Origin: a virus
Lineage: Duplodnaviria > Caudoviricetes
Virus record (IMG/VR): IMGVR_UViG_2840949845_000002
Coordinates: 22,434 to 86,433 of that record
Strand: one strand, 5' to 3'
Length of the DNA: 64,000 nucleotides
Each line of letters starts with the position of its first letter. Position 1 is the stretch's first letter. Below, piece by piece: positions 43,433-46,978 of this stretch. Under the pieces are notes generated by a model. It was not told where the DNA came from. It saw only the letters and a program-made list of their open reading frames with translations, and did not search any database. The position numbers and the translations under genes were made by a program.

Positions 43433-43627
43433 ATGGAGGAAATCCGTTGCGGCTCCTGCGCCAAACTTTTGGCGCGGGGAACCGCAGAAATGCTCGAAAT
43501 CAAGTGCTCGCGTTGCGGCACGATCAACCATGTGAGGGTCAAGAACCCCCCATCAGAGCGCCCAAGAGCGTCCGACTCGGCACAGGACACTCATGGGCAG
43601 GATCGACGGGGAGCATCCCCGCCTTAG
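43433..43627 (+). CDS. com: Com family zinc-finger translational activator
   Basis: EIRCGSCAKLLA...LEIKCSRCGTIN; overlaps the mom start. Confidence 0.9.
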   Translation: MEEIRCGSCAKLLARGTAEMLEIKCSRCGTINHVRVKNPPSERPRASDSAQDTHGQDRRGASPP

Positions 43628-44318
43628 CGCGGTTGGCGCGCGTGGTTACAGTCATGACGAGGCGGGTCGCGTCGTCGGTTTTGGCGATGCCGAATTCCGC
43701 ATCGCTGAAATTCCACGGGCAGTGGCGGCGGAGATCATCATCCGCCACCACTATTCCGGGCGCATCGTCCAGAACAGCTACATTCACCTTGGCGTGTTTC
43801 TGCGCGGCGAGCTGGTTGGCGCGCTGCAATTTGGCTACGCCATGAACCCGGCGTCGGGCAAGAGCGTGGTGGCCGGAACCGGAAACCGCGACTATCTGGA
43901 ACTCAACCGGATGTGGTTGAGCGACGTCGTCCCCCGCAACGGGGAGAGCATGGCGATCAGCTACGCGACCAAATACATCAAAGCCCGCTTTCCTGCCGTG
44001 CAATGGATCCAGTCTTTTGCCGATGAGCGGTGCGGGTGTTGGGGCGTGGTTTATCAAGCCTGCAACTTTGTCTATTGCGGCTTCCACTTCACCGACTTCT
44101 ATCAATTGGACGGTGAATGGTTTCACGAGATGCTTTTGACAGCCCACAAAAAGATGGGGACGCGAGGCGCGCGGCTGCGGGAAAATCTGCACCGCGCGAC
44201 CAAGCATCGGTTTCGGCAATTCCGTTACGTGCTGTTTCTGAAACAATCCGCGCGGAAGCGGCTGCTGCGGAAAACCGCCGCTTACCCAAAGCCGGGTTTG
44301 GGGGCTCCTCATGGCTAA
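43593..44318 (+). CDS. mom: Mom family adenine-modifying enzyme
   Basis: HHYSG...HLGVF...GALQFGYAMNP...LELNRMWL...PRNGES..IS...WIQSFADERCG..GVVYQACNF. Confidence 0.9.
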   Translation: MGRIDGEHPRLSAVGARGYSHDEAGRVVGFGDAEFRIAEIPRAVAAEIIIRHHYSGRIVQNSYIHLGVFLRGELVGALQFGYAMNPASGKSVVAGTGNRDYLELNRMWLSDVVPRNGESMAISYATKYIKARFPAVQWIQSFADERCGCWGVVYQACNFVYCGFHFTDFYQLDGEWFHEMLLTAHKKMGTRGARLRENLHRATKHRFRQFRYVLFLKQSARKRLLRKTAAYPKPGLGAPHG

Positions 44319-45534
44319 AGTTTCGCCCCTGTCGCTGCCGCCCGACCAAGCCCTTCGTTTTTTCCGCGACAAAATCACGGAAGGCTCGTTCGATCATCGG
44401 GACATCTTTGGTGGTCTGCACGCAACCTATTTCACGGTGGCCAAGGCGATGGAGTTGGATGTGCTGGAGGCCATCCGAACCGCCACCGACGCCGCCATGG
44501 CCGAGGGTCAAACCAAGGAGCGCTTCGCCGCCGATCTGACGCCCACCCTGCAAAAGCTTGGCTGGTGGGGCGCGCAGGTTCGCGTCGATCCCTTGGACGG
44601 GCAAGAAAAGCTGGTCCAGCTCGGCAGCGCGCGGCGGCTGGCCACCATCTATGACACCAACCTGCGCACCGCCTACTCCGCCGGGCGCTGGGAGCGCATC
44701 CAGTCCCGCAAGGACAGCCGCCCCTGGCTGCGCTATGTCTGCGTCCTGGATGGCCGCGAACGCCCGCAACACCGGGCATGGCACGGCACGGTGTTGCGGG
44801 TGGATGATCCGTGGTGGCGCACCCACTACCCGCCCTGCGGTTGGTTCTGCCGCTGCTCGGTGCAGCAGCTCTCCGACGATGATCTGACCCGATTGGGGCT
44901 TGAGCCGTCCGCGCGGGCGCCCGATCTGAAAAACCAGCCCTGGACCAACCCGCGCACGGGGGCCACCGTCCAACTGCCCGACGGGATTGATCCGGGCTTC
45001 GGTCACAATGTCGGGCTTGCAGCCGATCAGGCCGCGCGCGTGCGGCTGATCGAAAAGCTCGACGCAACCGATCCGCCCTTGGCGGCGGGCGTCGTCGGCG
45101 ACGGGATGAAAAGCGTGGCCTTCGTCGACTTCTTGCGTGAAGGCGCCAACCGGCTGGGTGATTGGCCGGTTGGCGTCCTGGCGCCCGGCCTCGCCGCTGA
45201 CGCCATGGCGCTGAAGGTGCGGGTGGTGCGGTTGTCCCGCGACAGCGCCGACAAGCAGGCGCGCAACCACAAAGACATTGGGGCCGCCGACTATCAAGGG
45301 CTGGCCGCCGTCTTGCGGTCGGACAAGACGCCGCTCCCCGCCAACAAACCTCGGCACTGGGCGCTGACGGGCGAGCACAACGGCAAAATTTACAAGACGA
45401 TCATCAAGACGGCGCGGTTTGGACGCGAGGCTTTCCTGCAATCCTTCCACGTCATTGACGCGGCGGAGCTTGCCCGCATCGAATTGCGCGGTTGGGCCGC
45501 CGTCGATCCCGGCCCGGAGGGTATGGTGATGTGA
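44311..45534 (+). CDS. MuF/gp30 minor head protein with C-terminal PBECR-like nuclease extension
   Basis: RLATIYDTNLRTAY...DGRERPQH...YPPCGWFCRC (MuF); C-terminal KQARNHKDI...YKTIIKTA...FLQSFH. Confidence 0.85.
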   Translation: MAKVSPLSLPPDQALRFFRDKITEGSFDHRDIFGGLHATYFTVAKAMELDVLEAIRTATDAAMAEGQTKERFAADLTPTLQKLGWWGAQVRVDPLDGQEKLVQLGSARRLATIYDTNLRTAYSAGRWERIQSRKDSRPWLRYVCVLDGRERPQHRAWHGTVLRVDDPWWRTHYPPCGWFCRCSVQQLSDDDLTRLGLEPSARAPDLKNQPWTNPRTGATVQLPDGIDPGFGHNVGLAADQAARVRLIEKLDATDPPLAAGVVGDGMKSVAFVDFLREGANRLGDWPVGVLAPGLAADAMALKVRVVRLSRDSADKQARNHKDIGAADYQGLAAVLRSDKTPLPANKPRHWALTGEHNGKIYKTIIKTARFGREAFLQSFHVIDAAELARIELRGWAAVDPGPEGMVM

Positions 45535-45633
45535 TTGGGCGGTCGGGAAGGCTCCCCCCGGAAATGGATACCGGCCTCTTCCACGCGCCCTGTCGGCTAC
45601 GGCTGGGAGTTTCACCGTGTTTCGACCGCCCAA
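45535..45633 (+). ncRNA. Candidate structured, pseudoknotted RNA directly after muF
   Basis: ttgggcggtcg 45535-45 pairs with cgaccgcccaa 45623-33; internal hairpins; ctccc 45552-56 is complementary to the loop gggag 45605-09. Confidence 0.5.
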
Positions 45634-45789
45634 ACCCACTGTAGCGCCGGAGCGGCCCGTCGGCAAGATCAGCGGGCCTTCTGGAAAGGCCGCCAAGCAC
45701 GATCTTGGGCGCTTGGGCTACCCGCGTGCCGGAAAAATCCTTTAACGCGTTTTTTAACGCCTTTCCGGCCCGTTTCAGGGGCGCCCGAC

Positions 45790-45809
45790 CGCCGCATCCA
45801 CCACCATTA
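45790..45809 (+). promoter_or_regulatory. Late promoter motif copy 2 (PI-like)
   Basis: Exact 20-bp copy of 37588-37607 upstream of the protease/head operon. Confidence 0.7.
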
Positions 45810-45841
45810 TGGCGGCGGTTCCCTGGACGCATGATGCGTCC

Positions 45842-46978
45842 ATGAATTCCCCCCGCCCCATCCAGCCGCATCCGGCGCTCCGTCTGTCGATGGCCTCCAG
45901 TTCGGGGGCCGCCGACGTCGTCGCCTTTTCCGTCCTGGTGTCGAGCCTGCCCGAACTCGCGTCGGCGACGTCGGGTTGGATCAAGCTGGCGCCGCTTGGC
46001 GTGGTGTGTGGCCGGGATGGCCGGGGGCCTTACAATTTCGGAAACCAAACGCAGGCCGCCGCCATCGTCGCGGCGTCCAAGGCCTACGCTGGGCCGACCG
46101 ATCCGTTGATCGACTACGACCACGCCTTCGATTTGTCCGCCAGCCGTGGGCTTGGCAACGCCCCCGCCGCCGGGTGGATCAAGGATCTCGATGTGCGCGC
46201 CGACGGGATTTACGCGCGGGTCGAATGGACGAAGGCCGCCGCCGTCAAGATGAAGCGCGGAGAATACCGCTACGTCAGCCCGACCTTCAATCACGCCGCC
46301 GACGGCACAGTGGTCCGCATTCTTCGCGCGGGCCTGACGAACCACCCGAATTTCAACCTTCCCGCCCTTGCTGCCGCAACCCCACACCAGGAGCCTGTGA
46401 TGGACCCCACCCTTGCGGCGCTGTGCGCCGCGCTGGGAATGCCGGTCGGGACGGACGTGAACGCGGCGATCAGCCGTGTTCACGCCCTGACCGCCGCTTC
46501 CGCCGCCGCCCGCGCCGATTTCGACCGCATCGCCACCGCCGCCGGGCTGTCCGTCGGCGCCGAACCCACGGCCATCGCCGCCGCCGTCTCCGCCGATCCC
46601 GACCCCAAGGCGTGGGTGCCGATGGCGACCTACACCGCCGCCGCCGCCACCCTGGCCGAGTTGCAAGGCCAGACGCTGGAGCGGGAAGCGACCGCCGCCG
46701 TCGATAAGGCGGTGACGGAGGGTAAGGTCGCGCCCGCCACCCGTGAGCATTTCCTCAAGGTGTACCGCGCCGACCCGTCGGGCTGGACCGCCTTCGCGGC
46801 GGCTTTGCCGGTGGTGGTGCCACCGGGCAAGACGGCGGGGGGCGGCGTTTCCGGCCAGCCGTCCGGCGGTTCCGTGACGGGCGCGCTGGATGACGGGCAG
46901 AAATCCGTCCTGGCCATGATGGGCGTGGACCCGGCCAAGGCGGCCAAGGTCATGGAAGAGATGGGGTGGGCGTCATGA
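45842..46978 (+). CDS. Mu I-type prohead protease/scaffold
   Basis: GRDGRGP...IDYDH...APAAGWI...EYRYVSPTF...AGLTNHPN; Ala-rich scaffold tail; start uncertain. Confidence 0.85.
   Translation: MNSPRPIQPHPALRLSMASSSGAADVVAFSVLVSSLPELASATSGWIKLAPLGVVCGRDGRGPYNFGNQTQAAAIVAASKAYAGPTDPLIDYDHAFDLSASRGLGNAPAAGWIKDLDVRADGIYARVEWTKAAAVKMKRGEYRYVSPTFNHAADGTVVRILRAGLTNHPNFNLPALAAATPHQEPVMDPTLAALCAALGMPVGTDVNAAISRVHALTAASAAARADFDRIATAAGLSVGAEPTAIAAAVSADPDPKAWVPMATYTAAAATLAELQGQTLEREATAAVDKAVTEGKVAPATREHFLKVYRADPSGWTAFAAALPVVVPPGKTAGGGVSGQPSGGSVTGALDDGQKSVLAMMGVDPAKAAKVMEEMGWAS

Follow-up and report, generated by a model that had tools for sequence, protein, structure and literature searches.

A conserved tRNA-like RNA gene abutting the MuF gene of a Mu-like prophage, a candidate immunity partner of the MuF C-terminal nuclease domain

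Directly behind the gene for the MuF minor head protein of a Mu-like prophage lies a small, pseudoknotted RNA gene with relatives in many phyla. Its structure and its relatives mark it as a small RNA gene of its own, tRNA-like and folded as a cloverleaf, and not as the tail of the MuF messenger. We hypothesize, tentatively and as something slightly short of probable, that this RNA is a tRNA mimic encoded on the strand opposite MuF, which would bind and inhibit the nuclease domain at the MuF C-terminus and so act as its immunity partner.

The DNA analysed here (the window) is a 64,000-nt stretch, positions 22,434-86,433, of IMG/VR record IMGVR_UViG_2840949845_000002, from a Caudoviricetes virus (Duplodnaviria). 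Pfam matches to Terminase_6, Portal_Mu, PF04233, Mu-like_Pro and Mu-like_gpT follow one another across the window in the order of a Mu-like prophage. The plus-strand gene at 44311..45534 encodes MuF, a gp30-like minor head protein of 407 aa (PF04233, E 5.7e-23, 82.2 bits), and the first gene past the gap behind it, also on the plus strand, is a Mu I-type protease/scaffold gene (45809..46978; PF10123, E 5.3e-63). By codon GC3 and Pfam there is no credible coding ORF downstream of MuF in 45535-45845: the small ORFs in this interval have a GC3 of 0.57-0.65 against 0.72-0.84 for the adjacent genes, and a 99-aa ORF behind MuF has no Pfam match. The statement of the earlier note that no credible immunity ORF follows MuF therefore holds. 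What the gap contains is the RNA gene, at 45535..45633, most likely on the minus strand and read from 45633 to 45535, which was recognised by CM R1, covariation and strand statistics. Outside the RNA element and 5' of gene I lies a direct repeat, TTTAACGCGTTT / TTTAACGCCTTT (45741..45764, plus strand; repeat search, family D7), which may be a late-activator binding site for the next late operon. A direct repeat resembling it is present at a further locus, L011.

Structure and conservation of the RNA

The element is 99 nt long (45535-45633), and its first base directly follows the MuF stop codon. It is closed by a stem, P1 (45535-45545 with 45623-45633), of 11 perfect pairs, which extends in a repeat search to an inverted repeat of 16 nt at 88%. 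The earlier note had given this closing stem 11-14 bp (45535-48/45620-33); the stem is present, but its perfect pairing amounts to 11 bp. Inside it are a T-arm-like helix, P2 (45546-45551 with 45577-45582), a CCGG hairpin that is a lineage-specific insertion (45558-61 with 45571-74), a small helix, P4 (45587-89 with 45595-97), and a D-arm-like helix, P5, of UACGG with CCGUG (45598-602 with 45615-19). A loop-loop pseudoknot pairs CUCCC (45552-56) with GGGAG (45605-09). The two hairpins, ccgg/ccgg and tacgg/ccgtg, and the CUCCC/GGGAG pairing that had been proposed earlier were thus all found, at these coordinates. A CACG/CGUG helix in place of P5 was considered and rejected, being disrupted in a Mannheimia variant in which P5 is retained. 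Model R1 scores the window element at 71.5 bits (E 6.8e-15), and the genome holds one copy. Folding-energy z-scores are unremarkable on the plus strand (-2.0) and on the minus strand (-1.6), so thermodynamics alone gives no proof of structure beyond chance; that proof comes from comparative data.

In an alignment of 34 sequences, 94.8% of cells pair, both sides have changed at 21 of 30 pairs, and none of 500 shuffles equals this; slid controls of the same alignment pair at 36-50%. With 87 distinct sequences, pairing stands at 95.4%, double changes occur at 20 of 27 pairs, including 4 of the 5 pairs of the pseudoknot, and the covariation score is reached by 0/500 shuffles. A measure of "further pair types" over the same 87 sequences does no better than shuffles (263/500). 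The UACGG/CCGUG helix of P5 is invariant in the pattern-selected set and covaries only in divergent relatives, as read by eye. Compensatory changes of this kind uphold the earlier claim of a genuine pseudoknotted RNA, and the covariation that the earlier note had suggested looking for is found in the closing stem, two to three hairpins and the pseudoknot, with the same restriction for P5.

By this comparative evidence the element belongs to a conserved RNA family, in which a 19-nt core is identical from Pseudomonadota to Nitrospirota, Bacteroidota and Campylobacterota. Rfam 15 places nothing over the element at E <= 10 in a search of window positions 44000-46500 and has no match at E <= 1 in 20 related loci, and our literature search turned up no description of such an RNA. 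We take this for a new RNA family, strongly conserved, pseudoknotted and tRNA-like. Two other identities were set aside: a self-cleaving ribozyme or riboswitch, for which there is no Rfam match, and a genome-wide repeat or MITE, since the genome holds only a single copy. A second model, R2, built for divergent forms from a seed that contained one spurious row, gained only loci L084 and L086 and gave false matches inside MuF genes. The divergent forms in L062, L140 and L142 are therefore by-eye readings.

The likeness to tRNA appears when the element is folded on the minus strand. A closing stem of 7-11 bp runs straight into the 5-bp T-arm-like helix, there are a 4-bp D-arm-like helix and a middle hairpin that is variable and has no conserved anticodon-like loop, and a 5-bp Watson-Crick helix joins the two outer loops where the D-loop/T-loop contact of a tRNA would sit. 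Sister elements at the same site, on the strand opposite MuF, match the tRNA model RF00005 at 35.6 bits (L058) and 29.6 bits (L116; cut-off 29), and ARAGORN calls the L116 element a tRNA. The window element gives neither an ARAGORN gene nor an RF00005 match. That it fails the tRNA models while its sisters pass suggests an RNA that looks, and perhaps acts, like a tRNA yet lies outside the tRNA family.

The MuF C-terminal domain and its linkage with the RNA

In MuF, aa 54-184 form a Phage_Mu_F domain, and a PBECR/RelE-like domain takes up about aa 255-395 towards the C-terminus. Searched against the Pfam PBECR models, the window protein gives no direct match at E <= 1; homologues and a fold model support the PBECR/RelE-like assignment, which the earlier note had made from the letters. 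PBECR3 (PF18812) matches 12 of 18 upstream proteins at E <= 1, three of the 18 above the Pfam cut-off of 30 bits (32.9, 31.8 and 30.7 bits), and the window C-domain is 13-38% identical to the PBECR3-matching homologues. An AF2 model of the C-domain (pLDDT 89.1) places a helix at 73-82 and then strands at 105-145. Its best Foldseek match is BrnT 3u97 (probability 0.99, TM 0.62 on the target, with a weak E of 8.8e-3), and below it come the RelE chains 2khe, 2kc8 and 3g5o, also with weak E-values. As modelled, the domain has a BECR/RelE-like fold of an N-terminal helix and a 4-5-stranded sheet.

Iyer et al. (2017, PMC5512222) describe the C-termini of Mu-type MuF proteins as PBECR domains, with an active site likened to that of colicin D, in which the helix supplies a His or an Arg and a Thr/Ser follows at the C-terminal side; the PBECR domain of phage Mu is called inactive there. 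By that account, the C-terminal extension of about 150 aa described in the earlier note is nothing unusual and corresponds to the regular MuF-C region of Mu-type F proteins. In the window protein, alignment nominates K315, H320, K366, T367 and H380 as candidate catalytic residues. Among family members either H or R occupies the helix position, and S309 and K366 are the only invariant or nearly invariant positions. The MuF C-domain of the window would be an active, toxic RNase; the variable helix residue, the lack of a direct Pfam PBECR match and the weak Foldseek E-value count against this reading.

The genomic linkage of the RNA with this domain is strong and not exclusive: the element adjoins a MuF-C gene in 56 of 89 distinct instances and does not in 32 of the 89. 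Among 95 MuF loci taken from a Pfam search of 401 genomes, R1 matches in five, all of them MuF-C-positive, with the element on the same side and -45 to +3 nt from the stop codon; by-eye reading adds divergent versions at four further MuF loci. A long closing stem at the stop codon accompanies 26 of 61 MuF genes with PBECR-type or long tails, as against 14 of 272 control windows. No such stem is found at the stop codon of 26 short-tail MuF genes, nor of four with ART, CdiA-tRNase or RNase A domains; the comparison with MuF genes lacking the domain, which the earlier note had called for, thus finds the element in 0/30. RNA classes never cross nuclease classes in the sample (9/9, 9/9, 4/4 and 7/7), and the RNA class shifts with the nuclease class even where the N-terminal MuF domains are 60-70% identical. 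At PBECR2-type MuF loci, 15 of 24 show no recognised element. Common ancestry among phage lineages, rather than function, could account for both the linkage and the class matching. The earlier idea that an RNA stands in place of a protein ORF behind a PBECR/RelE-like MuF is borne out, the pair being linked across phyla.

The earlier note had also held that a structure occurring independently of the nuclease domain would speak against the pairing, and this is in part what was found. Beyond the 32 instances that do not adjoin MuF-C, the RNA also occurs without any MuF-C match in one complete genome and in three virus records that are 69-90% complete. Two of these records have no MuF domain and the third only a sub-cut-off Pfam match to it. 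There it lies by an endolysin/holin pair, at a convergent junction past lysis genes, or among host genes. Orphan copies are found in non-Mu prophages and in chromosomes, some near HicA, Gp49/HigB-like or addiction-module genes, and tandem whole copies are confined to two orphan loci. Among named phages, the model finds the RNA in just two, Mannheimia phage 3927AP2 and Haemophilus phage SuMu; Ochrobactrum phage POA1180 has a reduced form (E 0.084). A blastn search of the element gave nothing useful against cultured-phage records and zero matches against E. coli genomes.

Such a distribution would also fit an RNA that works without MuF-C, as a decoy of phages or mobile elements, an anti-defence RNA or a host regulator. 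As a decoy it would draw off host nucleases that target tRNA, or other defence proteins that bind tRNA, and the MuF-G/I junction would merely be a favoured accessory slot. The orphan copies in non-Mu prophages and chromosomes, with their occasional HicA, Gp49/HigB-like and addiction-module neighbours, agree with this, as do the tandem copies at two loci and the element's own promoter and, where visible, terminator (see below); a core so extremely conserved over many phyla would suit binding to a conserved host factor. However, an accessory gene is expected to be sporadic, whereas the element or a class-matched relative stands behind most MuF-C genes examined and behind none of the 30 MuF genes without the domain. 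The joint change of RNA class and nuclease class over closely similar N-terminal domains likewise argues against independence, and we consider this explanation unlikely.

Strand and promoter

Statistics over related sequences make the strand opposite MuF the most likely one for the RNA. Read on the MuF strand, the mismatches in P1, P2, P4 and the pseudoknot comprise 66 A·C and 12 G·U (22 and 6 in the first alignment). On the opposite strand, 51 of 89 instances have a sigma-70-like -35/-10 pair ahead of the element, compared with 2 of 89 on the control strand. In the window, the candidate promoter read from the sequence (45639..45667, minus strand) has a -35 CTTGCC at 45667-45662, a 17-nt spacer and a -10 CTACAG at 45644-45639, and would let the transcript begin on, or close to, the first base of P1; a strict sigma-70 scan of 45000-46200 returned zero promoters. 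At orphan loci, T-rich tracts or separate terminator hairpins lie 3' of the RNA on the opposite strand, and no gene lies upstream of the element on the plus-equivalent strand.

A gene that converges on MuF and abuts or overlaps its stop codon (-45 to +3 nt) might also be a cis-antisense RNA or an insulator of the late region. Its transcription towards MuF, with full complementarity to any read-through from MuF, would then lead to processing or block the read-through between late operons, tuning MuF and the downstream head genes in the manner of 3'-overlapping type I antitoxin RNAs. The window element does sit between MuF and a separate candidate late-promoter region of gene I. In phage Mu, where F overlaps G and the element is absent, the corresponding site after G holds a terminator and then a late promoter. 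However, pure antisense action needs neither a conserved cloverleaf and pseudoknot nor a 19-nt core identical across phyla, orphan copies have no MuF opposite them, and in SuMu-type phages the element lies within the F-G unit and not at an operon end. These points make an antisense or insulator role improbable. The simpler proposal that the element is the intrinsic terminator of the MuF operon was rejected, none having been detected at the locus.

The earlier note had placed the element on the plus strand, in the untranslated 3' part of the MuF messenger, where it would serve as antitoxin or substrate; a role in processing or stability would be a further variant of this placement. The element begins directly behind the stop codon, its helices are equally possible on both strands, and the U·G pair that closes P5, present in 86 of 87 sequences, is standard on the plus strand only. 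Against this stand the preponderance of A·C mismatches, promoters on the other strand only, the tRNA matches of sister elements on that same strand, and the orphan copies with no upstream gene to supply a messenger tail; at some loci, moreover, the MuF reading frame continues into the element. We therefore abandon that placement as very improbable in favour of a small opposite-strand gene with its own promoter. A DNA-level element (a Mu-like central strong gyrase site, a recombination site or a mobile inverted-repeat element) is highly improbable: the Mu gyrase site is annotated in the same central region, just past G, and the element bears terminal inverted repeats, but four internal helices and the pseudoknot covary while loop lengths vary, the asymmetry of wobble and A·C mismatches indicates an RNA of one strand, and the genome holds one copy.

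Proposed function and comparison with known systems

We hypothesize that a small tRNA-shaped RNA of about 90-100 nt is made on the strand opposite MuF under a sigma-70-type promoter of its own, with its 3' end meeting the MuF stop codon, and that it is the cognate partner of the C-terminal PBECR (BECR/RelE-colicin D-like) RNase domain. As a tRNA mimic it would bind the nuclease and keep it harmless in the virion-producing cell. Because the promoter looks constitutive, we propose that it may further shield lysogens from the same nuclease when related phages inject it. The RNA would then be an immunity factor with a logic like that of type III antitoxins, and the orphan copies elsewhere would be orphan immunity genes. 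We also entertain, with more doubt, a broader hypothesis: that Mu-type phages possess a repertoire of tRNA-mimic RNAs with a separate class for every nuclease class. Each RNA would confer immunity to a virion-injected BECR-fold RNase carried on MuF, would be made constitutively and ahead of the toxin so as to guard both producing cells and lysogens, and would spread to other prophages and to chromosomes as orphan RNA immunity.

If the one-class-per-nuclease reading is true, these would be the first case of RNA immunity to a polymorphic-toxin-type effector, and new toxin-antitoxin-like pairs in which the antitoxin copies the tRNA substrate of the toxin. To our knowledge, no target, partner or immunity has been reported for the PBECR/MuF-C domain of Mu-type phages since its description in 2017, and the RNA provides a testable partner for it. 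Should the immunity reading hold, it would explain how a phage tolerates its own packaged RNase and would extend RNA antitoxins past type III. For annotation, the seemingly empty gap behind MuF in many prophages contains a gene, most likely on the opposite strand.

The RNA has the topology of tRNA, and of the tRNA-like domains of tmRNA and YrlA: a cloverleaf whose closing stem stacks on an arm of 5 bp, with a further arm of 4 bp and a contact between loops. Unlike a tRNA, the window RNA lacks both a 7-nt anticodon loop and a T-loop sequence, shows no free CCA end, and makes its loop-loop contact through a 5-bp Watson-Crick helix.

The type III toxin-antitoxin systems (ToxIN, CptIN, TenpIN) resemble the proposed pair in having an RNA as neutraliser of an endoribonuclease, a pseudoknot, an RNA gene beside the nuclease gene, and a setting in phages and defence. 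Antitoxins of the ToxI type consist of tandemly repeated units of about 34-45 nt, encoded ahead of the toxin gene and on its strand, and the toxin itself cleaves them apart. In the present case a lone tRNA-like unit of about 90-100 nt stands past the gene and convergent with it, most likely on the opposite strand; in the window it is a single 99-nt unit and no repeat array. Because processed tandem short repeats are absent, the RNA is not ToxI-like. The nuclease differs as well, being a BECR/RelE-like domain fused to a virion protein where type III toxins have the ToxN/AbiQ fold.

Like MuF polymorphic toxins, the window protein joins an N-terminal MuF domain to a toxin-like C-terminal domain of the variable kind. 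Earlier work (Jamet et al. 2017, PMC5576092; Iyer et al. 2017, PMC5512222) has already described PBECR domains on F proteins of the Mu type and raised the idea of a packaged, injected effector, and small downstream ORFs were taken as putative immunity proteins in 89.4% of 191 genes (PMC5576092). The available parts of these two papers mention no RNA partner. Compared with MuF toxins that have protein immunity, the window has an RNA gene, and no coding ORF, behind MuF.

Finally, the arrangement of a small RNA gene convergent with a toxin gene and meeting its 3' end is shared with 3'-overlapping type I antitoxin RNAs such as RatA/txpA and SR4/bsrG of Bacillus subtilis. RNAs of the RatA and SR4 type work through base pairing, for which a conserved tertiary fold is not required, and their toxins are small membrane peptides and not nucleases. 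In the pair proposed here, by contrast, the putative toxin is a nuclease domain and the RNA has a conserved fold.

A covarying RNA family behind MuF genes

The 99-nt element behind MuF belongs to an RNA family that is real and new. Five helices are proposed: the closing stem (P1), an adjacent 5-bp helix (P2), a pseudoknot (PK, CUCCC with GGGAG), a variable hairpin (P4) and P5 (UACGG with CCGUG). Every pairing listed in the earlier note is present in the window sequence, and the closing stem it gave as 11-14 bp has 11 perfect pairs (45535-45545 with 45623-45633). The window's CCGG hairpin is an insertion found in alphaproteobacterial forms. The folding energy is unexceptional (z = -2.0 for the plus strand, -1.6 for the minus), ARAGORN calls no tRNA in the element and Rfam 15 has no match over it at E <= 10.

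The predicted structure is upheld by covariation. Across 34 aligned sequences, 94.8% of cells hold standard pairs, and in 21 of 30 pairs both partners change; none of 500 shuffles attains any of five measures, and sliding one strand by 1-3 columns lowers pairing to 36-50%. A larger set of 104 model matches (87 distinct) gives 95.4% pairing, with double changes in 20 of 27 pairs and at 4/5 pairs of the pseudoknot. Here four of the five measures are attained by 0/500 shuffles, and on the fifth, a count of further pair types, shuffles do as well (263/500). P5 is invariant in the pattern-selected set because the search pattern fixed it; compensatory changes in this helix were recognised by eye in Mannheimia phage 3927AP2 (GCGG/CCGC), Haemophilus phage SuMu (GCGAU/AUCGC) and one genus-mate (UUGG/CCGA). 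An alternative CACG/CGUG helix was rejected, being broken in divergent relatives where P5 changes compensate.

Among 69 genomes of the same genus, a DNA search found the element at 77-92% identity in three others, one of which carries two tandem copies. The core search pattern (CTACGG, 8 free bases, TTCACCGTGTTTC) recovered 37 loci from viral contigs and 60 from one-genome-per-species contigs, the titles of the latter naming Pseudomonadota, Desulfobacterota, Campylobacterota, Nitrospirota, Bacteroidota and several candidate phyla. Twenty core-pattern loci had no Rfam match at E <= 1. Some orphan loci, where the RNA adjoins no gene for the MuF C-terminal domain, hold two tandem copies 140-230 nt apart; tandem copies lie at L010 1359-1606 (two copies), L161 347-434 and 579-666, and L177 394-496 and 505-603, the second of these weak at 17.5 bits. 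A search of the main texts of full-text papers returned no description of an RNA behind MuF genes, and a term search of the text of a preprint mapping prokaryotic noncoding sequence (10.64898/2026.10.21.760802) did not find it. Passages of the AcrIIIA1 paper (PMC11662646) bear no relation to the element.

The surrounding head module of this Mu-like prophage runs from large terminase through Mu-type portal, Mom-family gene, MuF and a gap to Mu I protease and gpT capsid protein. The element (45535..45633) forms the first 99 nt of the 274-nt gap directly 3' of MuF (44311-45534, plus strand), before the protease gene. As the earlier note had held, this gap contains no credible immunity ORF, its small ORFs having a GC3 of 0.57-0.65 vs 0.72-0.84 in neighbouring genes. 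A 535-aa antisense open frame (44089-45696, minus strand), which spans the whole MuF gene and the element, is not taken as a gene; in DNA this GC-rich, chance is expected to yield such long frames. The Mom-family gene (43593-44318, plus strand; PF25680, E 1.6e-78) lies between portal and MuF, its end overlapping the MuF start; since mom sits at the right end of the phage Mu genome, a Mom-family gene among the head genes is unusual. Gene I is preceded, at a distance of about 45 nt, by a direct repeat, TTTAACGCGTTT / TTTAACGCCTTT (45741-45764, plus strand), and a genus-mate has a like repeat, TTGAACGCG, in the corresponding position (L011, about 1700-1725); the repeat may be a binding site for a late-gene activator.

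The MuF C-terminal domain and its link to the RNA

The first 250-260 residues of the window's MuF resemble Mu gp30 (42% identity, residues 9-252), and the C-terminal 150 are common to only some phages, including POA1180, SuMu, Mannheimia 3927AP2 and Helicobacter prophages. Among 18 proteins encoded just before the RNA, 15 carry the Phage_Mu_F domain and 12 match PBECR3 at E <= 1 (3 above the Pfam cut-off). The window's MuF has no PBECR3 match at E <= 1 and aligns with the others over the whole domain. A Foldseek comparison of a structure model built from the domain alignment (pLDDT 89.1) with the PDB ranks BrnT, a RelE-like toxin, first (probability 0.99, E 8.8e-3); RelE chains come lower, and no PDB match reaches E 0.001. 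The homologues and the BrnT and RelE matches thus support the PBECR/RelE-like C-terminus (MuF-C) proposed earlier. It is a known domain and no unusual extension: Iyer et al. 2017 (PMC5512222, as excerpted) describe a C-terminal PBECR domain on Mu gp30, hold it to be inactive there and probably active in orthologues, and compare its active site to colicin D. BECR classification is the subject of a 2026 preprint (10.64898/2026.08.28.747851, likewise in excerpt).

The Pfam domain Phage_Mu_F, sought in 401 genomes of the phylum, matched 96 times in 75 of them; 95 of these loci, the window's own left out, were examined. R1, a covariance model of the RNA, had six matches at E <= 1. The five strong ones are all in loci positive for the MuF-C alignment A3, on the MuF side, and begin between -45 and +3 nt relative to the stop codon; a weak sixth lies on the other strand inside a gene. 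As for the remaining A3-positive loci, one is cut by the contig end, one has a truncated domain and no gap, and divergent versions were recognised by eye in L062, L140, L142 and L084, the last confirmed by R2, a later model for divergent forms whose seed included it.

A model-free test asked for an inverted repeat with perfect arms of 8 bp or more, the first arm starting within 14 nt of the stop codon, and a span of 60-135 nt. Such a repeat follows 0/26 short-tail MuF genes, 8/23 of PBECR2 type, 6/13 of PBECR3 or A3 type, 3/4 of MuF_C (PF18819) type and 9/21 with long tails without a Pfam match; genes with ART, CdiA-tRNase or RNase A domains gave 0/4 and control windows inside genes 14/272. 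No element class was seen with more than one domain class: the pseudoknotted cloverleaf accompanies the A3 type (9/9), a second class PBECR2 (9/9), a third an unassigned tail of ~190-210 aa (4/4) and a class with a canonical T-arm either MuF_C or an unassigned tail of 217-262 aa (7/7), counts that are descriptive only, the classes resting on short motifs picked after viewing the sequences and the genomes being related. In 15 PBECR2 loci no element was recognised. C-domain subtype and RNA class can differ between loci even at 60-70% identity of the N-terminal domains. In phage Mu, F overlaps G and there is no element.

At least two further element classes, with 9-10-bp closing stems, were seen behind MuF tails that are of PBECR2 type or unassigned; they take up the first ~98 nt past the stop in L061, L066, L068, L069, L072 and L075, and about 102 nt in L144, L145 and L150. 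An ordinary tRNA-Leu(caa) gene called by ARAGORN (L146 3526-3612, minus strand) lies in the same locus as a MuF bearing a CdiA C-terminal tRNase domain. The MuF of L057 has a single in-frame TAG within a 437-aa frame; decay to a pseudogene, sequencing error and recoding are possible causes.

From the RNA side, with MuF-C detected by an HMM from A3 at E <= 1e-3, the domain ends just before the element in 56/89 distinct exact-pattern instances; 32 have none there, some of them possibly HMM misses, and one has too little flank. In a complete genome of the window's genus the RNA lies between PhoX and a Zur/CobW pair, with no MuF-C match genome-wide. Three virus records (69%, 82% and 90% complete) also carry the RNA with no MuF-C match, two having no MuF domain at all and the third a single match below the Pfam cut-off; the RNA lies between endolysin and holin in one of those two, at a convergent junction after lysis genes in the other and near the contig end in the third. 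Further orphan copies adjoin HicA, a Gp49/HigB-like gene, an addiction-module component or ordinary host genes, and one genome has one copy behind a MuF-C gene and two tandem copies near a GemA gene. The association with the nuclease domain holds, but an exclusive link is weaker than the earlier note assumed.

Strand and proposed role

Because the helices are identical on both strands, the strand was sought in non-symmetric features. An A·C cell on either strand reads as G·U on its complement. Read on the MuF strand, the non-Watson-Crick cells of P1, P2, P4 and PK comprise 66 A·C or C·A, 12 G·U or U·G and 39 other mismatches (A·C 22 vs G·U 6 in the first alignment), although a binomial figure for this excess overstates the case, the sequences being related. 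Promoter-like -35/-10 pairs (at least 8/12 matches, A2 and T6, spacer 16-18, -10 ending 3-14 nt before the RNA) are present on the strand opposite MuF in 51/89 distinct instances (31 at >=9, 14 at >=10), against 2/89, none at >=9, in the MuF-side control. A simple scan of window positions 45000-46200 gave no terminator or promoter; the best candidate promoter by sequence is CTTGCC, 17 nt, CTACAG (45667-45639, minus strand). At least six T occur in the ten bases after the RNA in 26/89 instances vs 11/89 in the control, and orphan loci have T-runs or a separate hairpin-and-T-run terminator 3' of the RNA on the strand opposite MuF. Elements of the same size stand at the same place in other Mu-like prophages, with a canonical T-arm standing in reverse complement on the MuF strand. 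The Rfam tRNA model matches, on the strand opposite MuF, L058 (35.6 bits) and L116 (29.6 bits; cut-off 29), the latter also called a tRNA by ARAGORN, and the tRNA-Sec model matches L087 at 26.3 bits, below cut-off. However, the U·G pair closing P5 is standard only on the plus strand. We conclude that the RNA is very probably encoded on the strand opposite MuF.

In L015-L051 the MuF C-terminal tails past a conserved G-x-V-I-W-E end in a varying number of residues, many of them K, E or R. Together with the stop codon, the codons of these residues form a U-rich tract right 3' of the RNA on the opposite strand, and protein end and RNA terminator may share bases there.

A small tRNA-shaped RNA gene is kept beside a single kind of nuclease domain, and a change of domain goes with a change of RNA. 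Toxins of the BECR fold commonly cleave tRNA, rRNA or ribosome-bound mRNA (PMC5512222, as excerpted), and in the simplest reading MuF-C binds the RNA. We hypothesize that it acts as a substrate mimic that would block the putative nuclease. It would be transcribed from a predicted promoter independent of the late activator and, needing no such activator, could be present before MuF. On this reading, orphan RNA copies would be orphan immunity genes. Of 191 MuF toxin genes, 89.4% are reported to have a small downstream ORF for a putative immunity protein (Jamet 2017, PMC5576092, as excerpted).

An autonomous decoy or anti-defence RNA, a reading set between the orphan copies and the 56 instances that adjoin MuF-C, is the foremost alternative, though an unlikely one. 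Less likely still is a cis-antisense or insulator element, with the opposite-strand placement on one side and copies among unrelated genes on the other. The mRNA-strand placement of the earlier note has the P5 U·G pair in its favour and yields to the mismatch tally, the promoters and the sister tRNA matches, so that a plus-strand mRNA element is improbable. A DNA site, for which terminal inverted repeats of the element speak, is very improbable beside a covarying pseudoknot.

Likeness to tRNA

The strand, the nature of the RNA as an independent gene and its likeness to tRNA are new beyond the earlier note. On the strand opposite MuF, P1 leads through GAAA to a 4-bp helix that closes a 12-nt loop; next come the variable hairpin, nine conserved bases and a 5-bp helix, which joins the 3' half of P1 without a spacer. 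The outer loops pair as a 5-bp pseudoknot. By tRNA dimensions we read this as the same arrangement of acceptor, D, middle and T arms, differing from tRNA in that a Watson-Crick helix stands in place of the contact between D-loop and T-loop.
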